Shown: positions 6,255 through 44,398 of the stretch, one piece after another | Layout of the letters: the number at the start of each line of letters is the position of its first letter | Numbering within the stretch: the first letter of the stretch is position 1 | DNA from: a virus | Taxonomy: Duplodnaviria; Heunggongvirae; Uroviricota; Caudoviricetes | IMG/VR virus record: IMGVR_UViG_3300027851_000011 | Length of the DNA: 64,000 nt | Reading direction: 5' to 3' (one strand) | Program-made: the position numbers and the translations under genes | Notes under the pieces: generated by a model | What the model was told of the DNA's origin: nothing | Seen by the model: only the letters and a program-made list of their open reading frames with translations | Database searches by the model: none

Positions 6255-6611
6255 CTATTCCTTTACGTCGGGCGGCTGCTCTGGATACCGTTTCTTCAGC
6301 TCATCATCCGGGGCCAGTGTGCCTTCGAGTCGGTACTCGGCCCAAGCTACTTCGGCTTCCTTGCGGGTCATCGTTCCCCGTGCCACGTTGCGCTCGATGC
6401 AGATCTTGGCGTGCTCGCGTACACCAAGGTACAGCTTCAGCCCGAACGTCGCGGCCTTCACGTAGTTTGCCTCCCAGGTAGCCGCTGTCTTGTCATCCGG
6501 CAGCATGACCGGAATCTCAGGCATCGGAACCATCGGCAGGCGCTCGTAGACCATGCGGTTCTCGCAGCATCCGCTGAGCAGGATGGCGAGCAGGAGCACG
6601 AGGTATTTCAT
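6255..6611 (-). CDS. Outer-membrane lipoprotein, o-spanin (Rz1-like) candidate
   Basis: MKYLVLLLAILLSGCC has a lipobox LSGC with a proline-rich mature part. Its start overlaps the upstream i-spanin-like gene by ATGA. Confidence 0.55.
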   Translation of the reverse strand: MKYLVLLLAILLSGCCENRMVYERLPMVPMPEIPVMLPDDKTAATWEANYVKAATFGLKLYLGVREHAKICIERNVARGTMTRKEAEVAWAEYRLEGTLAPDDELKKRYPEQPPDVKE

Positions 6612-6982
6612 CGGTGTCCTTTCGTGGGAGCCCAGTGCGGGGCAGCTTGCTGCTGTTGCTGCTGGACGCCTTGCTGTTGCTGTTGCTGGATCTGCTGGTG
6701 CTGCTTCGACCGGATCTCGGTCAGCTGCTCGATCACCTCTGGATCCTTGGCCTTGGCCAGTTCGGTCTCGACGCCTTCAATGACGTCAGGACGCGTGAGC
6801 GTCTCGCCGTCCGCAGTCGAGAGATCCTGGAGCGACATGCCATCGGAGCCGATGGCGATGTTGTCGCTGATCAGGATCTTCAGGCTGATCGCCGTCAGCA
6901 CGAACAGGAGCCCGACCGAGATGATGATCCAGGCAGCCGCCGGCATCTTGGCGAGGTTCAGGTTGATGCCGGGGATCTTCAC
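6608..6982 (-). CDS. i-spanin (Rz-like) candidate: N-terminal TMD, periplasmic coiled coil, C-terminal poly-Q
   Basis: The hydrophobic segment AAAWIIISVGLLFVLTAISL is followed by a charged helical region and QQQQQQGVQQQQQQ. Confidence 0.5.
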   Translation of the reverse strand: MKIPGINLNLAKMPAAAWIIISVGLLFVLTAISLKILISDNIAIGSDGMSLQDLSTADGETLTRPDVIEGVETELAKAKDPEVIEQLTEIRSKQHQQIQQQQQQGVQQQQQQAAPHWAPTKGHR

Positions 6983-7215
6983 TTGGTCACCGCGTTCCAG
7001 GCAGCGGGCGACGACACGTCGTGCCCGAGGCGCATGGCCTCGTGAATGCGACGCTGAGCTTCAGCGTCCTCAGCGATCGAGCGCATCTTCGCTTCGAGCG
7101 CCTTCGTCTCTGCCTTCACGGCATTGCGCTCCTTGACGCCATCGACGGTCTTGCCGACGAGCAGCTCCAGGAGCGACTTCACGATGGGTCCGAAGAGGGT
7201 CAGCAGGAACGTCAT
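6979..7215 (-). CDS. Small membrane protein, possible holin/antiholin (single N-terminal TMD)
   Basis: 78 aa. MTFLLTLFGPIVKSLLELLV is hydrophobic and is followed by a charged amphipathic tail. Position in the lysis module supports the call. Confidence 0.3.
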   Translation of the reverse strand: MTFLLTLFGPIVKSLLELLVGKTVDGVKERNAVKAETKALEAKMRSIAEDAEAQRRIHEAMRLGHDVSSPAAWNAVTK

Positions 7216-7218
7216 GGC

Positions 7219-8046
7219 TTACCCCGCCTTCGCGCTGAGCTTCGACTGGATCTCGGCCTCGGCCTGCTTCTCCAGGTACTCCGTGAACTTCTTCGCACCA
7301 ACGTTCAGGCCGTACTTCACGGCCATCTCAGCGCCGCCCTCGACCAGGGCCTTGGCAGTCGGGTACTTCTGGAACGGGCTCATCTCGTCGACAGCGCTGC
7401 GGATCCAGCTCATGATCTGGTCCTCGCCGACCTCTTTGATGAGGTCGATGTCCTGGCCCTTGAAGTACACCACCACGTCGTTCAGCAGCATGGTTCCGAG
7501 CCCCTTCAGGCGCTCCTTCACGGTCGTGATGTCCTTCACCTGACCACGAGCGATGGCCTCACACAGCTCAGGCAGGTACTTCTGGTTGTAGTTCTCGACG
7601 CACCGCCAGACATATGTCTTCGCACGCGCAACAAGCCGCTGCTTGGCGTCGATGCCGGCAACCTCGGCCTCGGCCTCGGCCTTGGTGATCTGCGCACTGG
7701 TGTAGTCGTTGATCTTCTTGCGCAGCCAGACAGCCGCGAGGCCCGCCAGCATGACGATGATCTCGGTCCACCACGTCTTGGGCGCCTCTTGTGTCGTGCC
7801 AGCTACAGGCGAGGCCGGTTGTGTGGGGTGGACAGCCGGTTCACTAGAGACAACGGCCGGAGCCGCTGCCACCGGAGCCGGCGCCGCAGGCGCTGCGACC
7901 ACAGGAGCCGGCGCTGCCGGCACGGTGAAGGGATTGGCCTCGGCCGCGAACGCGGCACACGCCAGGAACAGCAGGAAGACGTACCGCATGGGATCTCCAG
8001 GGTTGGGTTGTCCCCTGAATGGTCCCCTAACACTCACGAAAAGCAA
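7219..8046 (-). CDS. Exported/membrane protein of lysis module (signal peptide, Pro/Ala-rich linker, TMD, 170-aa C-terminal domain)
   Basis: Signal-peptide-like MRYVFLLFLACAAFAAEA, then PAPVVAAPAAPAP and a TMD WWTEIIVMLAGLAAVWL. The overlapping + strand ORFs are low-complexity shadows. Confidence 0.4.
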   Translation of the reverse strand: MLFVSVRGPFRGQPNPGDPMRYVFLLFLACAAFAAEANPFTVPAAPAPVVAAPAAPAPVAAAPAVVSSEPAVHPTQPASPVAGTTQEAPKTWWTEIIVMLAGLAAVWLRKKINDYTSAQITKAEAEAEVAGIDAKQRLVARAKTYVWRCVENYNQKYLPELCEAIARGQVKDITTVKERLKGLGTMLLNDVVVYFKGQDIDLIKEVGEDQIMSWIRSAVDEMSPFQKYPTAKALVEGGAEMAVKYGLNVGAKKFTEYLEKQAEAEIQSKLSAKAG

Positions 8047-11451: not shown

Positions 11452-12039
11452 ATGCTTGTAGCAGCAGATCTGATCAAACGCCAGTTCGACACTGGCGTCT
11501 GGAAGGCTTTCCGTCAAGACAAGCCAGTCGCCAGCTCGGACCTCAAGATCAATCCACACAGCATCGACGTGACGCTCGGTGACATCGTCACGGTCTTGCA
11601 GCCGAGGGGCAATGCCTTCCTCGACCCGCGTGACCCCGATAGCTTCACCGCCGTGCAGTTCAACGTCGACGGCTTGGTGGTTCACCCTGGCTCTTTCATG
11701 CTCGGCAGCGTTCGCGAGCGCTTCGACACGCGGAACTCGTTCATGTTCACCGGCTATCCGGTTTACGTGACGCAGCTCTACGACGGTCGCAGCACGGTCG
11801 GTCGCCTCGGCATCCAGTCGCACATGACGGCAGGCTATGGCGACTACGGCTTCCATGGGTATTTCACCCTGGAAATCGCCGTGCAGATGTCTGTCAAGCT
11901 CTACGCTGGCATGCGCATCGGTCAGGTGAGCTTCGTGCCACTCCTGACCTCGCTCACGCCGCCGGCTGCATATGATGGAGTGTACACCCAAGGGCAGCAG
12001 GGGCCGTCCGTCCCTGTCCTCGGGTCCAACCGCTTCTGA
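11452..12039 (+). CDS. dcd: dCTP deaminase / dUTPase-superfamily enzyme (Dcd-like)
   Basis: INPHSIDVTLGD matches Dcd INPxSxDLRLG. DGRSTVGRLGI matches the GRSSLARLGL motif. LEIAV...GMRIGQVSFVPL matches LEF.N...G.LIGALSFEPL. Confidence 0.65.
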   Translation: MLVAADLIKRQFDTGVWKAFRQDKPVASSDLKINPHSIDVTLGDIVTVLQPRGNAFLDPRDPDSFTAVQFNVDGLVVHPGSFMLGSVRERFDTRNSFMFTGYPVYVTQLYDGRSTVGRLGIQSHMTAGYGDYGFHGYFTLEIAVQMSVKLYAGMRIGQVSFVPLLTSLTPPAAYDGVYTQGQQGPSVPVLGSNRF

Positions 12040-12051
12040 AAAGGTAGCCAC

Positions 12052-12696
12052 ATGAAAGCTCTCCGTCTCGTTTCCAACCGCGTCGTGACTGCCGGTGATC
12101 CGCCCTTCGAGGGCTTCTTCACCCTAGAGATGGCTGAAGCTCTGATGCGCGATGATCCTGATCGGGCCATCGACATTATGACGAACCTGACGCCCAAGTC
12201 GGCGTCGCAGCTGATGACCATGATCCGCCTCGACAAGAAGCTGAAGGCCCGCTACGAGGAACTCGTCGCTCACTCGAATGCCAAGCGCCCGAAGCCGTCG
12301 AAGAATGCTCCGTTCAAAATCGAAGACATCCTCGACGAAGTTTTCGTCTTCTGCCCGCCCATCGCCTCGATTCTGTTCCTGACCGACGGGCGCCGACTGA
12401 TCCGTGAAGATCCTGACGACCTCGCTCAGACGATCACCGTCGCTGAGTACGAGAAGAAGTACGGTGAGACCGTGGACCTCGCGCTTGAGCGCATCCACGC
12501 GCAGAAGGTTGCGATCCTCGAACGTGCCATGTACCTGATGAAGGCACAGCCGCGCAAGATGGTCGTCAGCCTCGCCAACAGCGATGCTGTCTTCGACAAG
12601 ACTATCATCGCCTACGAACGCGACCAAGTCGGTGCGTTCGCCTCCCGCCTCAACACCACAGTCCTCGGCATCGAGGAAGAAGCACCAACCACATGA
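12052..12696 (+). CDS. Hypothetical protein
   Basis: 214 aa ORF. Confidence 0.45.
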   Translation: MKALRLVSNRVVTAGDPPFEGFFTLEMAEALMRDDPDRAIDIMTNLTPKSASQLMTMIRLDKKLKARYEELVAHSNAKRPKPSKNAPFKIEDILDEVFVFCPPIASILFLTDGRRLIREDPDDLAQTITVAEYEKKYGETVDLALERIHAQKVAILERAMYLMKAQPRKMVVSLANSDAVFDKTIIAYERDQVGAFASRLNTTVLGIEEEAPTT

Positions 12697-13760
12697 GCAA
12701 GATGAAGATCTACCACGCGGATCGCGACGTCGTCGCGAACGACCGCGCGTCCTCCGCGATGGCCGCCAACGGCCCGCAGTCTCCCTTCAATGGCGTCGCG
12801 CGTGATGCGCGCGGCACCCACACCGCTGCCGAGGTCATGGAGAAGTCCAACCTCGACTGGCGCGTCGATCAGCACGAGCTGTTCACCAAGGACGGCATCG
12901 CGATCCCCACGCACAAGGCCCTGCTGCGCAGCGACACCAACGCGCTGCTGGGCGTGGTGGGCGACGGCTACACCCCGCTCCAGAACGCCGAGGCATTCAG
13001 CTTCGCTGACAGCCTCGTCGACACCGGCCGCATGGAGTTCCTGAGCGCTGGCCAGTTCAGCGACGGCAAGCGCATCTTCATCCAGTGCAAGCTGAACGAC
13101 AAGGACGGCGGCCTGGGCGCGACCGAGATCGCTCCAGGTGATACGGTGCAGCCCTACTTCCTGCTCGCCAACGGCCACGACGGCTCCCTGGCTGTGCGCG
13201 TCATGCTGACCAGCATCCGCGTGATCTGCCAGAACACCTTCGCTGCTGCGATCAGCCGCGACGGCAAGAAGCGCGAGACCAGCAGCTCGATCAAGCACAC
13301 CAGGAATCTCCAGGAGCGCCTGGAAGCGACCCGCAGCCTGTTCACCTGGGCCGGTGAGACCTTCAACGAGTTCGTCAGCACCAGCCGCGTCCTGACCCGC
13401 AAGCAGGTCGGCAGCGAGACCATCCTGAAGAACTACTTCCGCAGCGTCTTCGATGTCGAGGGCGACGCCGATACCTTCAGCACGCAGCTGAAGAACCGTG
13501 AGGAACGCCTCATCGAGCTGTTCCAGGTCGGCTACGGCAATGCCGAGAAGAGCGTGCGCGGCAGCTACTGGGCTGCGGCCAACGCGGTCACCCAGTACCT
13601 CACCCACGAGAGCCGCACGGCAATCAAGGGCGTGGACACCAAGAAGATCGGCCAGGACGAGCGCGTCACGCTGGAGCGTGCCAAGCGCCTGGAGAGCAGC
13701 CTCTTCGGCGGCAACCAGCGCATCACCGAGCGCGCCCTTCAGCTCGCCATCGCGTCGTAA
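12693..13760 (+). CDS. DUF932-like phage/plasmid protein
   Basis: LLANGHDGSLAVRVMLTSIRVICQNT matches the N(S/G)HDGS...RxVCxN signature recalled for DUF932 (TIGR03299). The antisense 595-aa ORF is a shadow. Confidence 0.5.
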   Translation: MSKMKIYHADRDVVANDRASSAMAANGPQSPFNGVARDARGTHTAAEVMEKSNLDWRVDQHELFTKDGIAIPTHKALLRSDTNALLGVVGDGYTPLQNAEAFSFADSLVDTGRMEFLSAGQFSDGKRIFIQCKLNDKDGGLGATEIAPGDTVQPYFLLANGHDGSLAVRVMLTSIRVICQNTFAAAISRDGKKRETSSSIKHTRNLQERLEATRSLFTWAGETFNEFVSTSRVLTRKQVGSETILKNYFRSVFDVEGDADTFSTQLKNREERLIELFQVGYGNAEKSVRGSYWAAANAVTQYLTHESRTAIKGVDTKKIGQDERVTLERAKRLESSLFGGNQRITERALQLAIAS

Positions 13761-15387: not shown

Positions 15388-15647
15388 TGACTGACCTCAG
15401 CACATTCAGTGAAGACGAACTCCAGCGCGAACTCGATCGTCGGCACAACCAGCGCATCGACGAGATCATCGAAGAGCGCATCATCGTTCAGAAGTTCGTC
15501 GCAGCCAACAAAGAAGCCTTCATTCACTTCTTCCGGGTTGGTGGATGCACCTACCCGGAGGATGCGGTGAACGCGATCGCCAACGACATCAACTACCGGC
15601 CCGAAGCCCAAGCGCTTCGCGTCGACCTTCCCGAGAAGCGGCTCTAA
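15387..15647 (+). CDS. Hypothetical small protein
   Basis: In-frame ATG at 15387 gives MTDLSTFSEDELQ...; the longer 14592 ORF upstream is Arg-rich shadow. Confidence 0.4.
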   Translation: MTDLSTFSEDELQRELDRRHNQRIDEIIEERIIVQKFVAANKEAFIHFFRVGGCTYPEDAVNAIANDINYRPEAQALRVDLPEKRL

Positions 15648-16456
15648 TGGGATACACCACCAACTTCGAGGGCAACCTCGTGCTGTCGCCAAAGCTGAGC
15701 GACGCACAGGCTGCCTTCATCAACAAGCTCGCCGACACCCGCCGCATGAAGCGTAGCTTCATGCGGCTCGTCGGCGTTCCTGATCCGATTCGTGAAGCCG
15801 TCGGGCTTCCGCCCGGTGACGAGGGCGAGTTCTTCGTCGGCGAACCCGGCGACTTCGGCCAGGGCGACCACTTCAAGTCAGTCCTCGACAACAACCGCCC
15901 ACCGGGCACGCAGCCCGGCCTCTGGTGTCAGTGGATCATCGACGATGACGGCGATCTCGTCTGGAATGGCGGCGAGAAGTTCTACAAGTACACCGAGTGG
16001 CTCGAATACCTCATCGAGAAGCTCTTCAAGCCATGGGGCATCAAGGCCAACGGCCAGTTCATCTGGCAAGGCGAAGAGACCGGCGACGTCGGCACGATCG
16101 TCGTCGAAGACAACGTCGTGACGGTGCACAAGAACGTGCAGCTCAAGGCTGACTCCGATACGACGATGACGTTCAATGCCTACGCACAGGGCGTCCCGAA
16201 GCTGCCGAACACTGCGCTCGGGTCGCTCGGCTATAGTGCGCTCGGCCTCGCCGGTAAGTCCGGTGAGATCGCGTCCCTCATCAAGAAAGCCACGCGCGAC
16301 GCCAACGGCATCCCGAAAGACGTTCTGTGCGTCGAACTCGGCAACGCATTGTTCTACCTCAATGCCGTCGCCATCAGCGCCGGCCTCACCCTCGATGAAG
16401 TCGCTGGAGCCAGTCTCAAGCGTCTCGCTCAGAAGTACGGAAATCACCATGTCTGA
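15647..16456 (+). CDS. Protein with C-terminal MazG-like nucleotide pyrophosphohydrolase domain
   Basis: GKSGEIASLIKKA...VLCVELGNALFYLNAVAISAGLTLDEV...LKRLAQKYG resembles the MazG EExxE/helix core. Confidence 0.5.
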   Translation: MGYTTNFEGNLVLSPKLSDAQAAFINKLADTRRMKRSFMRLVGVPDPIREAVGLPPGDEGEFFVGEPGDFGQGDHFKSVLDNNRPPGTQPGLWCQWIIDDDGDLVWNGGEKFYKYTEWLEYLIEKLFKPWGIKANGQFIWQGEETGDVGTIVVEDNVVTVHKNVQLKADSDTTMTFNAYAQGVPKLPNTALGSLGYSALGLAGKSGEIASLIKKATRDANGIPKDVLCVELGNALFYLNAVAISAGLTLDEVAGASLKRLAQKYGNHHV

Positions 16457-28427: not shown

Positions 28428-28918
28428 CCATGTTCAACACACACCAGTTCATGATGCCGATCACGCCCGACGATCCCGACGGCTATGGACTGATCCCCGA
28501 ACACACGCTGTACTCGCTGCGCATGTACATCGCCGAGGGGCAACCCCTCGGCGGCTTTCTCGAAAAGGTCGTCTCTGGTGACGCGACGAGAGCGTCGACT
28601 GACGCCGACCTCGAAAACAAGCGAGGCTTCCACGCTATCTGTCGCTGGATCGCAGTCCGTGCTCCGATGTGCTGCTATGGCAGCGCCTTCAAGTACGACC
28701 TGTGGCTCACTATCGGCGGCCTGAAGCACTATGCCGAGTACGACGCTGCTCGCATGGGACGCGCGAGTGATCTCGATCCCGAGATCATCGAGCGGCTGCG
28801 TCGGCTGCATGCCGACTATGCCAAGAAGTTCCGCGAGCAAGCCCAGGAACACACTGACTGGCAGATGCAGCTCGGCATGAGCAAGACGGCTGTTCCTGAG
28901 GTGGCCCATGGGCGGTAA
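28424..28918 (+). CDS. Hypothetical protein
   Basis: 164 aa ORF. Confidence 0.45.
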   Translation: MTMFNTHQFMMPITPDDPDGYGLIPEHTLYSLRMYIAEGQPLGGFLEKVVSGDATRASTDADLENKRGFHAICRWIAVRAPMCCYGSAFKYDLWLTIGGLKHYAEYDAARMGRASDLDPEIIERLRRLHADYAKKFREQAQEHTDWQMQLGMSKTAVPEVAHGR

Positions 28919-29948
28919 TGCTCTCGCCCACCTCGGTGTCGGCAGAGCCGACACCAGGACCGTGATCAACCTCTACAACCGGATCTGCCGGCTCGGCGCC
29001 CTCTACGGGATGCGACTGCATCTCGTTCCGTGGGTCGAAGAGAAGGATGACCATGGTGACATCGACGTGCTCACCGACTACGTCCCAGGTGGCGTGGCGT
29101 GCTTCATGAAGCACAACTTCGGAATCGCTGAGAACGAGATGAGCACCAACGGCAACGTCATCAGCGTGGCCGTGCCATACGATTCCAAGCTGAAGATCCA
29201 GGTCGATTTCATCACGACGCCAGACGAGGACATGCCGTTCTCGATGTTCTACTATGCTGGCGGCGACCTCGGCTCGCTCGTTGGTCGCATCGCGGCTGCA
29301 AAGGGTTATACCTTCGCGACCAACGGCTTCCGACTGCGTGCTGATCATGAACGCGGGATTCTCGAAGACATCAAGCTCCCGGTGAAGATGGTGCGGGCGC
29401 TGGATCTGCTTGGCTTCAAGACGATGCCAGATGCTGAGACGTTCAAGACGTACCACAACATGTGGACCTACGTCATGTCGTCAGAGCTGGTGCACCCGGC
29501 GATGTTCATGCCGGACGCGACGAACTCTGAGAATCGCAGCCGCGACAAGCAGCGGCGGATGATCGGCAAGTTCCAGGACTGGATTCGCAGCCAGTATCCC
29601 GATGACTGCGAGAAGCTCGGTGACTACCAGCGCTTCACCGGCGCTGAACGCCTGCACTGCATGCCCGAGGATCTGAGCACGCATGCTCAGAAGGTTCTGG
29701 CACAGCGCGAACGCGACGAAGAGAACCGTGCAGGACGCTCTGCCTGTTATGGCCGAAAGGCCGTGTTCGAAGTCTTTGGAACACTCAGCAATGAAGACAT
29801 GGGAGCTATCATCCGTGAGATGCAGCCGCTGCTGCCGACCAAGAATGACCGCGAGGATCTATGGAAGCTGAACAAGGACATGGCACTGATGCTGTCGAAG
29901 AATGCAGCGCGAGCCGCTGGACTCAAACTCGGGTTCAATCCGCGCTAG
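28908..29948 (+). CDS. Hypothetical protein, possible nucleotidyltransferase-fold enzyme
   Basis: 346 aa. HLGVG...DDHGDIDVL loosely resembles the Pol-beta-like NTase G[SG]...DxD pattern. Weak call. Confidence 0.4.
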   Translation: MGGNALAHLGVGRADTRTVINLYNRICRLGALYGMRLHLVPWVEEKDDHGDIDVLTDYVPGGVACFMKHNFGIAENEMSTNGNVISVAVPYDSKLKIQVDFITTPDEDMPFSMFYYAGGDLGSLVGRIAAAKGYTFATNGFRLRADHERGILEDIKLPVKMVRALDLLGFKTMPDAETFKTYHNMWTYVMSSELVHPAMFMPDATNSENRSRDKQRRMIGKFQDWIRSQYPDDCEKLGDYQRFTGAERLHCMPEDLSTHAQKVLAQRERDEENRAGRSACYGRKAVFEVFGTLSNEDMGAIIREMQPLLPTKNDREDLWKLNKDMALMLSKNAARAAGLKLGFNPR

Positions 29949-31285: not shown

Positions 31286-31435
31286 CCCGTGGCTACGAAC
31301 AGAGGCCCAGACGGGCGCTTCAAGTCGGGGGCCAACTGGCCCTTCGACGAAGGCCCTGTGCGGCGATCGCCGCCACGGCCACCACAACCACCTGAGCCGC
31401 CACCCTGGCGGCCTCATCGTCCCGAAAGGACACCC

Positions 31436-32719
31436 ATGGAACTGTCAGGCAAGGCCCTCATCTTCATCATTGGAGTCATACTCTCCATCATCGCCGCGTT
31501 CGTGGTGACCACGAACATGTACGAGTACGTCGATGCGGGTACTTACCACATCACCCAGTCCCCGTTCGGCAGCTCAGTGCGTGCACAGATGCAGCCCGGA
31601 TCGTACCAGCAGAACTTCCACAACATCACGGTGTGGCCTGTCGGCGAGTCCTACGAGTTCACCGATCCTGACAAGGACGGCCCGCAGGACGATCGCATCA
31701 CCGTCACCTTCAATGACGGTGCGACCGCTCAGCTGTCCGGCACCATCCGCATCGACCTTCCCCGTTCGGAGAAGGAAGCTGTGGATCTCGTCGTGGATCA
31801 CGGCTTCCGCACGTTCGATCAGCTCGAATCCAAGCTGATTCTGCGGTCACTGCGCAACGCGCTGAACATGACGGCCAACCTGATGAGCAGCCGCGACTCG
31901 TACAGCGAGCGCCGTGCTGACTTCCTCCGGCTGGCAAAGGATCAGATCGAGAACGGCGTCTACGTCACCAAGGACGAAGCCGTCAAGGAGACCGATCCCG
32001 TCAGCGGCCAGGAAGTCACCAGGATCAAGAAGGTCCCGGTGGTCGACAAGGACGGCAAGCCGCAGCGCGAACCGAGCCCGTTCACCCAGTTCGGCCTCCG
32101 TGCCTACGGCCTGGAGATCAAGGACTGGCACTACGAGGAACGCGTCGTCAACCAGATGAAGGCCCAGCAGGAAGCCGTGATGGCTGTTCAGACCGCGAAG
32201 GCCAAGAGCCTTCAGGCCGAGCAGGAAGCCAAGACCATCAAGGCACAGGGCGAGGCCAAGGTGATGACGGTCAAGTACGAAGCCGAGCAGGTGAAGGAGA
32301 AGGATACGGTCAACGCACAGCGTGAAGCCGCCGTCGCCAACATCGCTGCTCAGAAGGAAGTCGACGTCGCCAAGCTCGGTGCCGAGCAGGCCAAGGTCAA
32401 GGGCGAGCAGCTCAAGATGGTCGCGCAGTTGGAACTGGATGCTGCGAAGCTCCAGGCCGCTCGCACGCTGGAGCTGGCGCAGGCCGAAGCCAAGAGCCGC
32501 GAGCTGATCCTCGCTGCTGACGGCGCGCTCGACAAGAAGCTCGAAGCATTCAAGGATGTGAACGCGAAGTGGGCTGACGCCTATGCTCGCCAGAACGTCC
32601 CTGGTGTGATGATGGGCGGTGCTGGCCGTGACAGCGCTGCAACGGTGATGGACTTCATCGGCATCAAGGCAGCCAAGGAGATGGCCCTCGATCCGCACGT
32701 CCAGGCGCCGAAGAAGTAA
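31436..32719 (+). CDS. SPFH/band-7 (prohibitin/flotillin/HflKC-like) membrane protein
   Basis: N-terminal TMD ALIFIIGVILSIIAAFVV, then a globular domain and a long Ala/Glu/Lys-rich coiled coil. The Pro-rich N-terminal extension in ORF 31289 is probably not translated. Confidence 0.55.
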   Translation: MELSGKALIFIIGVILSIIAAFVVTTNMYEYVDAGTYHITQSPFGSSVRAQMQPGSYQQNFHNITVWPVGESYEFTDPDKDGPQDDRITVTFNDGATAQLSGTIRIDLPRSEKEAVDLVVDHGFRTFDQLESKLILRSLRNALNMTANLMSSRDSYSERRADFLRLAKDQIENGVYVTKDEAVKETDPVSGQEVTRIKKVPVVDKDGKPQREPSPFTQFGLRAYGLEIKDWHYEERVVNQMKAQQEAVMAVQTAKAKSLQAEQEAKTIKAQGEAKVMTVKYEAEQVKEKDTVNAQREAAVANIAAQKEVDVAKLGAEQAKVKGEQLKMVAQLELDAAKLQAARTLELAQAEAKSRELILAADGALDKKLEAFKDVNAKWADAYARQNVPGVMMGGAGRDSAATVMDFIGIKAAKEMALDPHVQAPKK

Positions 32720-33336: not shown

Positions 33337-33569
33337 GCGAAGAGATAGACCCTGAAGATGTCTTCACAGCGCTACGACGGCCCATGCCGCCACGGAGCGT
33401 CTCGAAGAACGACATCATGTCGCTGACGCGCAAGATGCACAGCCTGCAACAACTCGGCCTCGATTATGTCAATCGTGGCAATGGAGACGACTACATGCTC
33501 CGCGTGGAGATGCTCGGCCTCCAACAACACCTCGAAGAGATCCTGAAACGATCGGAGAAACCCAAGTGA
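33333..33569 (+). CDS. Hypothetical small protein
   Basis: 78 aa ORF. Confidence 0.4.
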   Translation: MSEEIDPEDVFTALRRPMPPRSVSKNDIMSLTRKMHSLQQLGLDYVNRGNGDDYMLRVEMLGLQQHLEEILKRSEKPK

Positions 33570-34660
33570 ACACTCTCACCGACCCGGTGACCGGCGACCA
33601 GATGGTCGACGTCCTCGCTACCATCGCGCCTGAGCTGCTGAACCAGAAGTGCCTGGACCACGGCTTCGTCAAGATCCTGGACTGCATGCCGCGCCTCGTG
33701 CCGCTGCCAAAGGTCGACGGCGGAGGCCCCAACGACAACGGCGTGCCGTCCTGCGACTTTGCCATCGCTGACGCCGCTCGCATCAGCTACCAGAAGGGCA
33801 CCCGCAAGGTCAGCGCTGATGCTGGCCTGATCGACCACCTCATCCGCAACCAACACACCAGCCCAATCGAGATGGGCGAGCTGAAGTTCCACATCCGTCT
33901 GCCGATCTTCGTGATGCGGCAGCACGTGCGTCACCGCACGGCGAGCCTGAACGAAGAGTCCGCGCGCTACAGTGAGCTGGCCTCTGACTTCTACATCCCG
34001 GATGCCAAGGACTGGGCGCTGAACACGGCAGCTGACAAGCAGGCAACCGTCAAGTACAGCATCTCGCCGCTCCAGGCGCAGTGCCTGCACGACATGCTGA
34101 AGAAGCACAACGACCTGTCCTACAGCCTCTACCAGCAGTTCCTCGAAGGGTCGCTCGACGGCGAACTCGGCGATTCGCGCTATGGCGGTTCCAGCAACGC
34201 GCAGCCGTTCAACGGCCAGAGCCCGCTCGATCAGCTGCTCGCCAAGGTGCCGATCGCCCGAGAGCAGGCCCGTGCCGTGCTCGGCGTCAACATCTACACG
34301 CAGTGCGTGTGGAAGATCGACCTGAAGAACATGCTGCACTACCTGAAGCTGCGCACCGACAAGCATGCCCAGTACGAGATCCGCGTCTTCGCCGACGCCA
34401 TGGCCCGTGTGGTCGACGCCCTGTTCCCGCGCAGCTGGGAGAGCCACAAGGACAACTTCATCGACGGGGTGAACTTCTCCGGCAAGGAGCTGATCGTCCT
34501 CAACGGCATACTCAACGGCTTCGAACTCAACGCTGTGACGAGCAGCGGGTGGACCAAGCGCCGCTTCGACGAGTTCGCTGGCAAGCTGCGCCGCAGCAAG
34601 CTGGTGAGCGACGAGAAGATCGTCAACATCATCCACGAAGTCTGGCCGTCGGCAGTCTAA
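33566..34660 (+). CDS. thyX: Flavin-dependent thymidylate synthase ThyX
   Basis: ThyX signature RHRTASLNEESARY (RHR-x7-S). Confidence 0.8.
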   Translation: MNTLTDPVTGDQMVDVLATIAPELLNQKCLDHGFVKILDCMPRLVPLPKVDGGGPNDNGVPSCDFAIADAARISYQKGTRKVSADAGLIDHLIRNQHTSPIEMGELKFHIRLPIFVMRQHVRHRTASLNEESARYSELASDFYIPDAKDWALNTAADKQATVKYSISPLQAQCLHDMLKKHNDLSYSLYQQFLEGSLDGELGDSRYGGSSNAQPFNGQSPLDQLLAKVPIAREQARAVLGVNIYTQCVWKIDLKNMLHYLKLRTDKHAQYEIRVFADAMARVVDALFPRSWESHKDNFIDGVNFSGKELIVLNGILNGFELNAVTSSGWTKRRFDEFAGKLRRSKLVSDEKIVNIIHEVWPSAV

Positions 34661-36129: not shown

Positions 36130-36473
36130 ACATCGACCATCCCGTGGTCGAAACGCTCGTCGACACGCTGCTCACCATCAAGGTGACGGCTGACCGAGCG
36201 CCGAGCCACGTGCCATACGTGAAAGCCTTCTCGAAGAAGGCAGAAGAAGCCATCGCTGCCTATCGCGCCGAGCGCGACAAGGTCAATGGCGCCAAGGTCC
36301 GCACATCGAAGGAGTTGATCGACGGTCTCCAGAACCTCGTCAATGCCTTCGACACCGCTGCCCATCTCGTGAAGCTGGGCGGTTCCAACGAAGAGGCTGC
36401 GCTCTTCAAGCTCGATCAACAAACCCTCATCGGAATCATCCGAGAACTGAAGGTCCATCATGGGCTCGGATGA
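36117..36473 (+). CDS. Hypothetical protein
   Basis: 118 aa ORF. Confidence 0.4.
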   Translation: MLRLNIDHPVVETLVDTLLTIKVTADRAPSHVPYVKAFSKKAEEAIAAYRAERDKVNGAKVRTSKELIDGLQNLVNAFDTAAHLVKLGGSNEEAALFKLDQQTLIGIIRELKVHHGLG

Positions 36474-37233
36474 GGACGAGAAAGCGAAGAACGAACGACT
36501 TCTCCAGAAGCTGCGTGAGTATGGGACGAAGCATCCGATGCAGCGTCCTGCTGATCCTCTTCCGTATTTCAGTGAAAAGCTATATATCGAGTACATCGTT
36601 CCGAAGCTGAAGCAGTGGTTCACGGTCTATACACAGGTGAATGCCTTCCACTACTCTGGCCGTAGCTTGAGGTACGATCTGCTCGTCATTCCGACCGACG
36701 AGGCCGTCGGTCGTGTTTGCCAGTTTCCTTGGTTCGTCATCGAGACGAAGTTAGACATCTACAACAACAAATACAAGGAAATCAGCGAAGCATACATGCA
36801 GGCGTACGAGTACCGTAACACGGTTGTCAACGACACGCGATTCGTTGGCACTCCGCTTCATGGCGTTCGCCCACCAGCAGTCATGCTGTGCTCTGACATA
36901 ACGGGCAGGCTCTTCAAAGACGAAGGGCGCCGTGAGTGGGACTGGATCAGCCGGACATTCGGACGACGCGGTGTGTACTCGTTCTACGTCGACGACGCCA
37001 CAGCTATGGCTTTCACGCACCATGGTCACGTCTTCAACTACATGGGACAGCGACTCTGTAACATGAAGAATCATTCTGCCCTCCGCTTTAGCGGCGGGAT
37101 AGCTGACTGGTCCTCGTTCAAGTTACTTCTGACGTCAGACGGAGAATACCGAGAGATGACGGAAGAACTCATGACCATTGCTCGTGAAACGCAGAAACCA
37201 CCCGAAACCCCCGATGCCTGTCTAGGCAGTTAG
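36460..37233 (+). CDS. PD-(D/E)xK-like nuclease candidate in a low-GC stretch
   Basis: DLLVIPTDE...FVIETKL fits the D...ExK core. Codon usage is visibly AT-richer (aaa, tta, ata codons) than its neighbours. Confidence 0.45.
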   Translation: MGSDEDEKAKNERLLQKLREYGTKHPMQRPADPLPYFSEKLYIEYIVPKLKQWFTVYTQVNAFHYSGRSLRYDLLVIPTDEAVGRVCQFPWFVIETKLDIYNNKYKEISEAYMQAYEYRNTVVNDTRFVGTPLHGVRPPAVMLCSDITGRLFKDEGRREWDWISRTFGRRGVYSFYVDDATAMAFTHHGHVFNYMGQRLCNMKNHSALRFSGGIADWSSFKLLLTSDGEYREMTEELMTIARETQKPPETPDACLGS

Positions 37234-37243
37234 GAACATCACC

Positions 37244-37651
37244 ATGGCATTCCGTAAGTCCGGCCAGTACTACTGGTCAGATCCTGACGCCGGCAGCTGC
37301 TCTGCCGACGTCTTCGTCGTCAAGGAAGACGGCGAGAAGGTCACCGTCACCCACAAGCTGAAGAGCAAGTGCGCTGAAGGCGAATACACCGAGTTCGAGG
37401 TGCTCGCCAGCGAGCTATGTGCTATCAGCCAGTCCAACAAGCCGCGCTACGTGATCGCTGGCGTCAACCAGATCGACAGCGACACCGGCGAGCCGAAGTT
37501 CTGGTCGACGGAGCACGGCTGGACCAAGCTGGTCAAGGCCGACGCGCTGTCGATCCGCACCTACGACAACCTGAAGGCCGGTCGTGGCACCGTTGCTGGT
37601 GACTACGTCGTCCTCCAGCTGCCGGCTGACGTCGTCATCGCCCTCGCGTGA
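37244..37651 (+). CDS. Hypothetical protein
   Basis: 135 aa ORF with RBS GGAACATCACC upstream. Confidence 0.45.
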   Translation: MAFRKSGQYYWSDPDAGSCSADVFVVKEDGEKVTVTHKLKSKCAEGEYTEFEVLASELCAISQSNKPRYVIAGVNQIDSDTGEPKFWSTEHGWTKLVKADALSIRTYDNLKAGRGTVAGDYVVLQLPADVVIALA

Positions 37652-37815
37652 AGAAGCTCAAGCTGCTGAAGAAGAACGTCATCAAGCTCCCGCCGAAGGC
37701 ATTCAAGCAAGTCCTCAAGATCATCAACGATCCGAAGCCACCGAACGCGGCACTGAAGCGCGCAGCGCGGAAGTACCGTGACGAGGTGAAGGCCGGAAAG
37801 CTGAAAAGCACATGA
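37650..37815 (+). CDS. Small basic protein (about 54 aa)
   Basis: GTG start overlaps the upstream stop. Translates VKKLKLLKKNVIKLPPKAFKQVLKIIND... Confidence 0.25.
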
Positions 37816-38387
37816 ACATCATCCTCCGGGCCGCCAAGTTCGCTGAGATCGCCCACCATGGGCAGAAGCGGAAGGGCATGGACCTTCCGTACATCATCCA
37901 CCCTGGCCGCGTCGCTGCACGCATCTCGCGCCTCGACAACGCCACCGAAGAGATGGTCGCTGCCGCGTGGTGTCACGACATTCTCGAAGACACCACCGTC
38001 CCGGCCAACGACATCGGCAACAGCCTCAACTTCGGAACCATGCAGCTGGTTCTCGAACTGACGAACCCGTCGCACAAGCCCGAGAACAAGGCTCTGAATC
38101 GTGCTGCCCGCAAGCAGCTCGATCGAGAGCACCTGTCAAAGGTCAGCCTCGAAGCCAAGTGCATCAAGCTCGCGGACAGGGCTGATAACCTGCGCGAGAT
38201 GGGGCACTTCGCTGATTCATTCAAGCGTCTGTACGCGTCCGAGTCCCGGCTGCTGTACAACGCTCTCAGTGAGGACAACGGCATCACGTCGTCTGCCGTT
38301 TCGAGCCTCGCAACCATGCCGCTCTTTGACGAACTCGATGCTGCCATCCGGTGGCTCGAACAGACCATCGACCCCGAGCACTACTGA
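37812..38387 (+). CDS. HD-domain phosphohydrolase of the RelA/SpoT (Mesh1/SAH-like) type, putative (p)ppGpp hydrolase
   Basis: HHGQKRKGMDLPYIIHPGRVA...AAWCHDILEDT matches the SpoT hydrolase HxGQxR...PYxxHP...HDxxED pattern. Confidence 0.6.
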   Translation: MNIILRAAKFAEIAHHGQKRKGMDLPYIIHPGRVAARISRLDNATEEMVAAAWCHDILEDTTVPANDIGNSLNFGTMQLVLELTNPSHKPENKALNRAARKQLDREHLSKVSLEAKCIKLADRADNLREMGHFADSFKRLYASESRLLYNALSEDNGITSSAVSSLATMPLFDELDAAIRWLEQTIDPEHY

Positions 38388-38397
38388 AAGGCTCACC

Positions 38398-38700
38398 GTG
38401 AACATCTTCAAGTACATCATCCCCCACAAGAACCGCTCTGTCGTGCAGATGCCGGCCGGCGCCAAGATCACCCACGTGGCCCCGCAGGTCAACGCGGAGA
38501 CCGGCGAGACCCAGATCTGTGCCTGGGCGCTCGTGCCCGAGAACGTCGAGGGCGACTGCGCCGAGGTGAAGTTCCAGATCGTGGGCACCGGCGGCAAGGC
38601 GCCCGCTGGCTACACCTACGCTGGCATCCTGATCCTTCACAACACCACGATCATCCAGCACGTCTTCTTCGACAGCACCGCGCCCATCGTCAAGATCTGA
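38398..38700 (+). CDS. Hypothetical protein
   Basis: GTG start within ORF 38101..38700 after the upstream stop. Confidence 0.35.
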   Translation: MNIFKYIIPHKNRSVVQMPAGAKITHVAPQVNAETGETQICAWALVPENVEGDCAEVKFQIVGTGGKAPAGYTYAGILILHNTTIIQHVFFDSTAPIVKI

Positions 38701-40162: not shown

Positions 40163-41422
40163 ATGGTCGATGTCATGCCGGACAAGGTCGTCATCGTGTG
40201 CGTGAGCACTGAGGCGACCTCAACGTCTAAGAACAACAGCAACAAGTTCCATAAGTGGGAGAAGCAGGCCGACGGCCAGTTCCTCCACAGCTATGGACGC
40301 GTCGGTGACCCCGGCGTCACGCATCTCGTCAGCGAGAGCAAGGCACGCGCGAAGCTGAAGAGCGCGCTGAAGGACGGCTACAAGGAGGTGGCGATCGCTG
40401 GTGCAGAGCCAGCACAGCCGCAGACCAAGGGCGCTGCTACGGCGAAGACCGCCGTCGACGAGATCGCTAAAGGCGATCCGACCATCGCCAAGCTGGTTAC
40501 CTTCCTCAGCGAGCAGAACGTCCACAACATCTCGTCGGCTACTACGCTGAAGTACGACAAGGTGTCGGGCCTGTTCAGCACGCCGCTCGGCATCGTCAGC
40601 CAGGACTCGATCGACGAAGCACGCGAGCGTCTCGCGGAGATTCAGCATGTGCTGACAGCGCCGGGTATGGTAGTGGAAGCTGATGTCAACAAGCTGGCTG
40701 CTGCCTACATGATGCTCATCCCGACGGACATAGGCCGTGACCGGCCGACGTTCAATCGGATGTTTCCGAACCTCGACGCTGTGCAGAAGCAGAACGACAT
40801 CCTCGAATCCCTCGAAGGTTCGCTGGAGATGGCTGCCAAGCCAGTGAAGAGCAAGAAGGCACCGAAGGCACCTCGCGTGTGGGACATTGACATCAAGAAG
40901 ATGCTCGACACGACCGAGATCGAGCGCATCCGCACCAAGTTCAAGAAGACCTACGAGTACGGACGCCCCGACATGGATGTTCGCAACGTCTACGACGTGA
41001 CGATCAACCATATGAAGAAGGCGTTCGACAAGGAGGGCAAGAAGATCGGCAACGTCGAAGAGATGTGGCACGGCACCAGCGTCGGCAACGTCCTCTCCAT
41101 CTTCGCCAAGGGCCTCATCATCCCTGCCCACTGCTCGAACGGTCGCAACTTTGGCAACGGCGTCTATGCCAGCCGCCAGAGCCACAAGAGCATGAGCTAC
41201 GCCGGGCAGTTCCGCTCGTCGGTTCGTCGCAGCTGCTACATGTTCCTGGTCGAAGTCGCGATGGGCAAGGGCTTCATCCCGAAGTCCCGCGTCCAGAGCC
41301 CGCCTGCGGGCTACGATTCTGTCGACGTCGTCCCAGGCGCCGCCGGATTCAGCGCGCATGAAGCGATCGTCTACAAGACGAGCCAGACCAACGTGGTTCG
41401 TCTGATCGAGTTCGCTGCGTGA
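40163..41422 (+). CDS. PARP-family ADP-ribosyltransferase with N-terminal WGR domain
   Basis: WGR region KWEKQADGQFLHSYGRVGDPG. Catalytic H-Y-E elements MWHGTSVGNVLSIFAKGL, GNGVYASRQSHKSMSYA and YMFLVEVAMG. Confidence 0.7.
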   Translation: MVDVMPDKVVIVCVSTEATSTSKNNSNKFHKWEKQADGQFLHSYGRVGDPGVTHLVSESKARAKLKSALKDGYKEVAIAGAEPAQPQTKGAATAKTAVDEIAKGDPTIAKLVTFLSEQNVHNISSATTLKYDKVSGLFSTPLGIVSQDSIDEARERLAEIQHVLTAPGMVVEADVNKLAAAYMMLIPTDIGRDRPTFNRMFPNLDAVQKQNDILESLEGSLEMAAKPVKSKKAPKAPRVWDIDIKKMLDTTEIERIRTKFKKTYEYGRPDMDVRNVYDVTINHMKKAFDKEGKKIGNVEEMWHGTSVGNVLSIFAKGLIIPAHCSNGRNFGNGVYASRQSHKSMSYAGQFRSSVRRSCYMFLVEVAMGKGFIPKSRVQSPPAGYDSVDVVPGAAGFSAHEAIVYKTSQTNVVRLIEFAA

Positions 41423-43520: not shown

Positions 43521-43770
43521 TCTGAAGGTCGGAGGTCTCGACGACGAGATGGACCCGTCACAGTACTTACACATGGAGGGCTGCGACCGATGCGGGAAGT
43601 TGAACGCACGTGTTTCAGAACGGTACTGGACCGATCGCAACGAGACGCTCTTCATGCGAATGCCGACTCTCGACGAGGTCATTCAGGGCCTCGTCGAAGT
43701 CGATCACGACTTCTGGCTCGAACACATCAAAACCATCAAGGAACAATATGGAAACGCCAATGCTGAGTGA
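43456..43770 (+). CDS. Hypothetical protein
   Basis: In-frame Met (MSLRCLLGFHKF...) within ORF 43399..43770. Confidence 0.35.
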   Translation: MSLRCLLGFHKFRVLTKEHGFDLKVGGLDDEMDPSQYLHMEGCDRCGKLNARVSERYWTDRNETLFMRMPTLDEVIQGLVEVDHDFWLEHIKTIKEQYGNANAE

Positions 43771-44398
43771 ATCAAAGTGCTGCGAGCCGTCGAAGCCGAC
43801 CAAGTTCGGCCTCAGCAGCGATGAACGCAACCAGATGTACTGGGGACGAAACCCGGACATGGTCGCACCGACGCGTCAGGTCATCATCAACCGCGATGGT
43901 GTCACCATCGAGCTATGGGACGCTTCGTTTGTCCGTGCGACCGTACTGGTCGCTCGTGAAGGTGCGCTCGGCACCATCAACGCCGAGTACGATTCGAATC
44001 TCATGGGTGATGGGCTGCCGCGCTGCTACCTGCTTTGGCAGGCGCTCACCGGCGGCAAGGGCAGCTTCTGCTACATCAGTGATCTGTGGGTCGCCCGCGA
44101 GTTCCGTCGCAAGGGCCTCGGATCTTGGATGCTCAAGCAGATCCTGAGCGGTTCCCCGTTCCAGCGCATCTACCTCGCGTCGAACTCGCACGGTGCGATG
44201 AGCAACTACGAGCTGTACACGTTCTACGAGAAGCACGGCTTCCGCCGTGTCGACAGCGATGTTTCGCTCATGGAATATGTGCGTGGCAACGAACCGAAGA
44301 TCAAGCCCACTGGGCTGGCTGAGGTCGCGTGTCAGCTCGACTCGGTCATCAATGCGAAGAAACAGGATTCTGTGGGGATGGCATGCCGCGCACCATAG
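43760..44398 (+). CDS. GNAT-family N-acetyltransferase
   Basis: Motif A ISDLWVAREFRRKGLGSWMLKQIL with YEKHGF near the C-terminus. Confidence 0.55.
   Translation: MLSESKCCEPSKPTKFGLSSDERNQMYWGRNPDMVAPTRQVIINRDGVTIELWDASFVRATVLVAREGALGTINAEYDSNLMGDGLPRCYLLWQALTGGKGSFCYISDLWVAREFRRKGLGSWMLKQILSGSPFQRIYLASNSHGAMSNYELYTFYEKHGFRRVDSDVSLMEYVRGNEPKIKPTGLAEVACQLDSVINAKKQDSVGMACRAP

Follow-up and report, generated by a model that had tools for sequence, protein, structure and literature searches.

What would a phage gain from a stand-alone enzyme of the SpoT/Mesh1 type? The question is raised by an open reading frame (ORF) at positions 37812-38387 of a 64,000-nucleotide stretch of viral DNA (IMG/VR record IMGVR_UViG_3300027851_000011; this whole 64-kb stretch is referred to as the window). 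An earlier note, made by a model from the letters and their predicted ORFs, had proposed that the ORF encodes a stand-alone HD hydrolase acting on (p)ppGpp, that is, a small alarmone hydrolase (SAH), and had read two further genes of the window as its allies in an attack on host nucleotide signalling. The gene and the motifs on which its assignment is based are as follows.

37812-38387, + strand: SAH gene, single RelA/SpoT-type HD domain, 191 aa, ATG start
37854-37874, + strand: HHGQKRK (H15-K21), with R20 and K21 as predicted phosphate/base contacts, from the clade and MESH1 alignments
37887-37904, + strand: PYIIHP, with Y27 and the predicted first metal-ligand histidine H30, from the same alignments
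37974-37994, + strand: HDILEDT, with predicted metal ligands H55-D56 and predicted catalytic residues E59-D60, from the same alignments
38166-38195, + strand: KLADRADNLR, with K119, the predicted metal ligand D122, and N126; aligns with KLADKLYNLR of MESH1

The ORF is a genuine gene. The motif coordinates were verified directly against the sequence, and its G+C content at third codon positions (GC3) of 0.80 is typical for the coding frames of this 60% GC window. It lies in a string of closely spaced genes that run in one direction, and the stop and start codons of its upstream neighbours overlap. Promoter and terminator scans around the gene gave nothing exceeding shuffled expectation.

The product was compared with profile, sequence and structure collections. 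The Pfam HD_4 profile (PF13328) matched it essentially end to end (profile positions 1-155 of 156; E = 1.9e-13), scoring 50.9 bits where the cut-off is 27.2, while the generic HD model (PF01966) reached only E = 2.4e-5, eight orders of magnitude worse. No RelA_SpoT synthetase match was found in the Pfam scan, and the sole other match with E < 1, Replitron_HUH at 0.035, was below its cut-off. The NCBIfam model TIGR00691 (spoT_relA) matched at 6.7e-18 through its N-terminal hydrolase part (positions 2-151), and two phage protein families described as 'phosphohydrolase', PHROG 990 (6e-25) and PHROG 32047 (4e-17), also matched. Among PDB sequences, Drosophila Mesh1 was the best match (4e-12), and human MESH1 (1e-10), Lmo0812, Rel, SpoT and SAHs were also found.

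The predicted structure leads to the same family. An AlphaFold2 model, built from a 28-sequence alignment, had a mean predicted local distance difference test score (pLDDT) of 92.8 and a predicted template modelling score (pTM) of 0.89, with one low-confidence stretch at residues 150-170 (pLDDT about 67). A Foldseek search of the PDB gave 216 matches, and the best 50, to which all fold comparisons below refer, were RelA/SpoT-homologue (RSH) family structures only. The top superposition was with Corynebacterium RelH (7qod; query-normalized TM-score, TMq, 0.82; root-mean-square deviation 2.5 A), and MESH1, ppGpp-bound Thermus Rel and the Pseudomonas SAH were also present, such matches having TM-scores of 0.72-0.82.

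The predicted active site is complete. In an alignment of 28 relatives of 35-54% identity, the invariant residues were H15, Q18, R20, Y27, H30, H55, D56, E59, D60, K119, D122 and N126, with G17 and K21 nearly invariant. A HMMER alignment pairs these with human MESH1 (native numbering) as R20 with R24, H30 with H35, H55-D56 with H61-D62, E59-D60 with E65-D66, D122 with D122 and N126 with N126. In MESH1 and RelSeq, residues at these positions bind Mn2+, supply the two catalytic acidic side chains and hold the nucleotide. Thus all four residues of the H...HD...D metal tetrad are present in the phage protein (H30, H55, D56 and D122), as are HDxxED (residues 55-60), D122-x-x-x-N126 and the nucleotide-binding motifs G17-Q18-K19-R20-K21 and P26-Y27. 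The earlier note had named a best match to a generic HD domain, such as a deoxynucleoside triphosphate (dNTP) triphosphohydrolase, lacking the GQxR...PY signature as the outcome that would overturn its proposal. The best profile was HD_4/RelA-SpoT, not a generic HD or dNTPase model, and the whole signature, GQxRK...PY...HD..ED...D..N, aligns residue for residue with MESH1, so the proposal stands.

The HD fold takes up the full 191-aa length, without synthetase, TGS or ACT domains. Since there is thus no synthetase or regulatory domain, the protein fits the definition of a small alarmone hydrolase. Longer HD_4 homologues were examined for domain fusions, and their extensions were without any Pfam domain. 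By profile, alignment and model, then, the product of 37812-38387 is a phage-encoded, stand-alone RSH hydrolase with a complete predicted active site, as the earlier note had held, and it is apparently active and catalytically competent.

What the enzyme does in an infected cell has more than one candidate answer. The role that we favour, somewhat more believed than doubted, is that it acts as a (p)ppGpp hydrolase and most likely keeps alarmones low during infection, judging from its motifs, its model and the analogies given below. How the metal is held, which substrates are cleaved and what purpose this serves in the cell we infer as follows. A Mn2+ ion would be held by H30, H55, D56 and D122, and E59 and D60 would activate a water molecule so that the 3'-diphosphate leaves (p)ppGpp, and probably (p)ppApp too, with R20, K21 and Y27 gripping the nucleotide. 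The SAH would be expressed within the packed co-directional string of phage genes. With alarmones low, the stringent response could not shut down transcription, translation and nucleotide supply before the phage replicates, and alarmone-dependent suicide pathways would not be triggered before replication was done.

Several observations make this role credible. The closest experimental precedent for the enzyme itself is PaSpo (SSU5_099) of Salmonella phage SSU5, a phage SAH that neutralizes alarmone-type toxins experimentally (PMC7229694). It matches the window protein with 34% identity over 166 residues (E 1e-16), and all motifs are common to both. PaSpo and PbcSpo of phage PVP-SE1 are, like the window SAH, stand-alone single-domain RSH hydrolases of phages without an adjacent synthetase. 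SSU5_099 has 213 aa against 191 in the window protein, is about one third identical and carries KLADLLDN where the window SAH has KLADRADN, and the two phage lineages are unrelated, SSU5 being a 103-kb enterobacterial phage and the window phage an uncultured one of ~200 kb with 60% GC. With regard to the base, guanine-binding Thermus Rel has R43 where the (p)ppApp-specific hydrolase Aph1 has D24 (PMC10083569); by motif alignment R20 of the window SAH sits at this position, and is an arginine as in Thermus Rel.

A benefit to phages from alarmone removal also has precedents. Atd1, a phage MazG protein, depletes (p)ppGpp and rescues the phage from TIR defence and suicide (bioRxiv 10.1101/2022.06.09.495361), and phage T7 uses its portal protein to inhibit both RelA and SpoT and so escapes restriction by the stringent response. 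On the strength of these two cases, removal of alarmones is a credible benefit. Atd1 shares with the window SAH the proposed outcome, (p)ppGpp depletion that stops alarmone-dependent host suicide; however, Atd1 is an all-alpha MazG enzyme and the SAH an HD enzyme, and different bonds are cleaved, which makes Atd1 an analogue and not a homologue. The blunting of the host stringent response, which had been put forward in the earlier note, is thus a reasonable reading by analogy, with precedent in the literature. The further suggestion made there, that cyclic-oligonucleotide messengers of defence systems might be degraded, is unsupported, as nothing ties RSH hydrolases to such substrates.

Several points weigh against the (p)ppGpp role. 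RSH hydrolases are promiscuous, MESH1 acting also on NADPH and SAHs also on (p)ppApp and pyrophosphorylated tRNA, so that sequence alone cannot fix the substrate. The host is indicated only by a hint of Planctomycetota. The neighbouring genes are uninformative, being conserved only inside the phage's own lineage. Finally, the literature that was searched contained no case of a phage that gains directly from its SAH during infection.

The main rival, which we consider possible but clearly less probable, is that the SAH was selected as a counter-defence against the toxic small alarmone synthetases (toxSAS) of abortive infection, such as CapRel, FaRel, FaRel2 and PhRel. It would then hydrolyse (pp)pApp, or strip the 3'-pyrophosphate off the CCA end of tRNA, and translation would be restored. 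The stand-alone SAHs of SSU5 (PaSpo) and PVP-SE1 (PbcSpo) neutralize all five toxSAS families examined, namely CapRel, PhRel, PhRel2, FaRel and FaRel2 (PMC7229694), ATfaRel and MESH1 restore the aminoacylation of FaRel2-modified tRNA (bioRxiv 10.1101/2021.04.30.441581), and the purification of CapRel, an anti-phage system, made use of the SSU5 SAH (PMC9712102). However, the role presupposes a host that encodes a toxSAS, and tRNA de-pyrophosphorylation is known for two SAHs only, both of them non-phage (bioRxiv 10.1101/2021.04.30.441581). The (p)ppGpp and toxSAS roles are not separable by sequence, nor are they mutually exclusive.

The toxSAS reading also draws on the gene just before the SAH, since the pair would suit a small cassette directed against toxins.

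37648-37815, + strand: 55-aa lysine-rich C-terminal module of a TacA/KacA-type antitoxin, without the ribbon-helix-helix (RHH) DNA-binding half; Pfam TacA1

The 135-aa gene before it (37244-37651) overlaps the 55-aa gene by GTGA, and the 55-aa gene overlaps the SAH start by ATGA; from this arrangement, the 55-aa gene is taken to be translationally coupled to the SAH gene. Pfam TacA1 (PF08681, DUF1778 antitoxins) matched the 55-aa protein over profile positions 42-79 of 80 at E = 4e-5 and 24 bits (cut-off 21). In a full HMMER scan, 1.84 billion representatives yielded six relatives, and in some cases the relative is the C-terminal tail of a longer protein. The six have in common the motif LSPxAFxxLxKIIDDPSPPxxALxxAAxxYRDEV, and six of the seven members of the resulting family match TacA1 (best E 1e-12). 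The pattern of the 55-aa protein, VIKL-PPKAFKQVLKIIND-PKPPN-AALKRAARKY, reads as a short strand, a helix, a proline-rich linker and a helix. This fits the betaB-alphaC-PPAP-alphaD part of KacA, the part that is wrapped around the GNAT toxin (PMC6698736). The resemblance makes the 55-aa protein a plausible mimic of an antitoxin, used by the phage against GNAT toxins.

The position of this gene, directly before an SAH of the 'pan-antitoxin' kind, is suggestive. The two genes could form a counter-defence cassette against toxins that attack the acceptor end of tRNA: the mini-antitoxin would wrap and block GNAT aminoacyl-tRNA acetyltransferases of the TacT/KacT/AtaT type, and the SAH would counter toxSAS/CapRel-type toxins by reversing CCA pyrophosphorylation or destroying the (pp)pApp that they make. 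We hold this idea to be improbable, because the closest relatives do not keep the two genes together. In two related phage contigs (L002 and L003) the SAH gene is preceded by a different, unrelated small ORF, and one relative of the 55-aa protein (P0038) stands alone in 150-kb phage-like contigs, so the 55-aa protein was rejected as a conserved partner of the SAH. For the same reasons, that the antitoxin-like neighbour is not kept beside the SAH in its closest relatives and that its homologue P0038 sits without an SAH, the neighbour counts against the toxSAS role as well as for it. If the idea were true, RHH-less TacA C-terminal mini-proteins would represent a novel class of antitoxin mimic encoded by phages; in any case, the 55-aa gene is a concrete starting point for asking if truncated antitoxins are used by phages to counter GNAT toxins.

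A GNAT gene in the window was considered as a TacT-type toxin for the 55-aa protein and rejected, as it has no specific PDB match, encodes 262 aa and lies 5.8 kb away. In this protein (43610-44398, + strand), the GNAT domain occupies residues 125-217, the N-terminal half is unmatched and no specific TacT-type similarity was seen. As a separate observation on the 150-kb phage-like contigs, a 1.4-kb stretch without a called gene lies right after P0038 (L165, 4166-5576).

The genes downstream of the SAH bear on the next alternative.

38398-38700, + strand: DUF7352 gene (phrog_3848), 10 nt past the SAH stop; Pfam DUF7352, 5.3e-16
40163-41422, + strand: 419-aa protein with poly(ADP-ribose) polymerase (PARP) regulatory and catalytic domains; Pfam, 9.5e-10 and 3.6e-18

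The GTG start of the DUF7352 gene at 38398 fits the N-termini of its homologues; one public gene call begins 60 nt earlier and overlaps the SAH gene. A literature search for DUF7352 returned no papers. The closest PDB match of the 419-aa protein is human PARP3 (1.3e-15). In L002 and L003, whose HD proteins are 51-54% identical to the window SAH, the order HD, DUF7352, small genes, 277/278-aa protein and PARP is kept, and the PARP counterparts (8960-10249 in L002, 9429-10715 in L003) are 64-65% identical to that of the window. The DUF7352/PARP order was absent from 160 other loci of HD relatives (80 IMG/VR and 80 genome loci), and a copy of DUF7352 turned up in none of them. Because the order from HD to PARP is found only in the phage's own lineage, it is a mark of common descent rather than of a functional module. 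Gene neighbourhood was accordingly rejected as a sign of functional linkage with the SAH, as the synteny is restricted to two phages of the same lineage.

The SAH could nevertheless be imagined as a MESH1-like NADP(H) 2'-phosphatase that raises NAD(H) and so feeds the PARP-like enzyme, or offsets NAD+-depleting defences. The top PDB sequence matches, Drosophila and human Mesh1, point this way, as do the second-best fold match, the MESH1-NADPH complex 5vxa, and the PARP gene 1.8 kb downstream, which is also found downstream in L002 and L003. However, at 25-26% identity the likeness to MESH1 is that of members of one family, and it is just as great towards bacterial Rel and SAH. No residues specific for NADPH were recognized in the window SAH. 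The PARP synteny is expected by common descent in phages that are 50-65% identical and whose genes are co-directional, and is missing from the 160 other loci. We regard this role as unlikely.

MESH1/Mesh1 structures (3nr1, 5vxa and 3nqw) are the closest PDB sequences and, with TMq of 0.72-0.75, rank among the top fold matches. MESH1 and the window SAH have the same metal and catalytic residues, D122 and N126 even under the same numbers, whereas the window SAH has a longer, partly low-confidence C-terminal segment. The proposed cellular substrate of MESH1 is NADPH; the window SAH was compared with it by sequence and model alone. The bacterial enzymes RelH (7qod), Pseudomonas aeruginosa SAH (6yvc, 6z3n) and Listeria Lmo0812 (4yf1) have the size class and fold of the window SAH, Lmo0812 aligning with its residues 10-182. 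They are 22-28% identical to it and have chromosomal housekeeping roles, in contrast to the phage-borne window SAH.

Still less probable is that the phage itself encodes an alarmone-synthetase toxin for which the SAH provides immunity or serves as antitoxin, in the manner of Aph1/MuF-Apk2 or ATfaRel/FaRel. There are SAHs that act as type IV antitoxins or as immunity proteins, and temperate phages carry some of these (PMC7229694, PMC10083569). However, no RelA_SpoT-type synthetase domain was found beside the SAH or in any called gene of the 64-kb window (of a ~200-kb genome), and the flanking products (135 aa, 55 aa and DUF7352) are not synthetases. The SAH is therefore not visibly an antitoxin or immunity partner. 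Aph1 (7smg), the (p)ppApp-specific hydrolase of a Bacteroides prophage, resembles the window SAH in being an HD-domain alarmone hydrolase in a phage, but it is a poor match (sequence E 0.0076, TMq 0.51), and it adjoins its toxin, which the window SAH does not. Aph1 is without two of the helices and has D24 where the window SAH has R20; a D24R change broadens Aph1 towards ppGpp (PMC10083569). The signature of Aph1-type (p)ppApp specificity, which comprises this Asp, R119 and the lack of the two helices, is absent from the window SAH, since the Asp position is occupied by R20.

Least probable of all the alternatives, and like the previous two unlikely, is a generic HD phosphohydrolase (a dNTP triphosphohydrolase or 5'-nucleotidase) serving the dNTP-pool genes of the phage: the window is rich in nucleotide metabolism (ThyX, a dCTP-deaminase-like protein, NT5C and a DR2231-like pyrophosphohydrolase) and a class II ribonucleotide reductase lies near the SAH in L002 and L003, but the generic HD profile trails HD_4 as described above, the best 50 Foldseek matches include no dNTPase or YfbR-type structure, and the GQxRK, PY and ED motifs, which are specific to RSH enzymes, do not vary in the SAH clade.

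Two further genes of the window had been combined with the SAH into a 'multi-pronged attack' on host nucleotide signalling.

1508-2101, + strand: all-alpha nucleoside triphosphate pyrophosphohydrolase (NTP-PPase), DR2231-like; PRA-PH, phrog_671 and PDB DR2231
15647-16456, + strand: two-part protein with a conserved uncharacterized N-terminal domain of ~160 aa and a weakly MazG-like tail of ~100 aa; PHROG

The first was correctly recognized as an all-alpha NTP-PPase. It matched Pfam PRA-PH above its cut-off (4.7e-7), phrog_671 (2e-20) and Deinococcus DR2231 (2e-7), and its EEALE and DGCAD motifs align with the acidic helices of DR2231, with an insertion of ~60 aa between the two. DR2231 was named 'MazG-like nucleoside triphosphate pyrophosphohydrolase' by its PDB depositors, and we take it to be a dUTPase (dUTP pyrophosphatase) of the MazG type.

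The second, which the note had called MazG-like, could deserve that name at most for its tail. Residues 167-264 matched phrog_229 'MazG-like' at 5.6e-11, and there was no match that would support a MazG identity in Pfam, NCBIfam or PDB. The canonical acidic motifs of MazG are ExxE...ExxD; read directly against them, the tail has KSGE...ELGN, in which two of the four acidic residues are kept. Most of the protein is an unrelated domain, matching phrog_38666 at residues 90-178. More than 2357 homologues were found at about 55% identity, covering only the N-terminal 60%; the tail is not shared by the longer ones, among which C-terminal extensions vary. The N-terminal domain has invariant MGYTT, TRR, QPGLWCQW, EKFY (within GGEKFY) and W.GE motifs. 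This domain (15647-16130, + strand) belongs to no Pfam family, phrog_38666 is described as 'unknown', and its homologues are mostly stand-alone proteins of ~165 aa on phage-sized contigs.

The combined attack is thus a weak proposal. One of the two supposed partners is a convincing NTP-PPase and the other is mostly an unrelated domain, and the DR2231-like gene, taken together with ThyX, the dCTP-deaminase-like protein and NT5C, is more simply read as part of dNTP-pool metabolism. The co-occurrence of an SAH and MazG in one phage has already been discussed in a 2025 paper (PMC12846349).

Phage SAHs as such are already known and very common. Relatives of the window SAH were found in 206 GenBank phage records, many of them annotated as polyphosphate hydrolase or (p)ppGpp hydrolase, and on more than 500 IMG/VR contigs, which is a lower bound. 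The window SAH is a divergent further example. It adds a well-supported case from a very divergent giant phage, perhaps infecting Planctomycetota, and confirms alarmone hydrolases as a common phage accessory gene, and by itself raises no new question. The question common to all phage SAHs is whether the substrate in infection is (p)ppGpp, (pp)pApp, pyrophosphorylated tRNA or NADPH.

The phage is very divergent, uncultured and giant (about 200 kb, 60% GC); an identical SAH protein is also encoded on a 200,781-bp contig. Its phage nature is seen from a DNA polymerase A with an exonuclease domain, a SNF2 helicase, ThyX, DUF932 and PHROG matches; SPFH and PARP-like proteins are also encoded. The 16 kb around the SAH gene had no nucleotide match in GenBank phages, and no cultured phage has a DNA polymerase that is more than about 25% identical to this one. 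No tRNAs were found in the 64-kb window. With regard to the host, the nearest SAH homologues in species-representative genomes (47-51% identity) are on contigs binned with Planctomycetota metagenome-assembled genomes of the Pirellulaceae and Planctomycetaceae (L085-L091), and one of these contigs, L090, shares a second gene with the window (28908-29948, 37% identity). These contigs give a hint of a Planctomycetota host.

The other annotated genes of the window referred to above are as follows.

11452-12039, + strand: dCTP-deaminase-like
12693-13760, + strand: DUF932
31289-32719, + strand: SPFH/Band-7
33566-34660, + strand: ThyX

A pooled scan of the window also picked up an NT5C 5'-nucleotidase and a pilin-like (N_methyl) protein. 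PADLOC models gave zero matches to nine neighbourhood proteins of the SAH. The occurrence of a eukaryote-like PARP in a giant phage is noteworthy in its own right, and candidate H-Y-E residues of this protein lie in WHGT, GVYAS and LVEVAMG (direct reading and one PARP3 alignment). Upstream of the SAH, a 257-aa protein (36460-37233, + strand) has no family match; by eye it contains a PD-(D/E)xK-like YDLLVIP...FVIETK arrangement and may be a nuclease. Finally, a block of four ORFs at 6255-8046 on the - strand, with GC3 of 0.76-0.85, looks like a genuine reverse-strand cluster in an otherwise plus-strand window.

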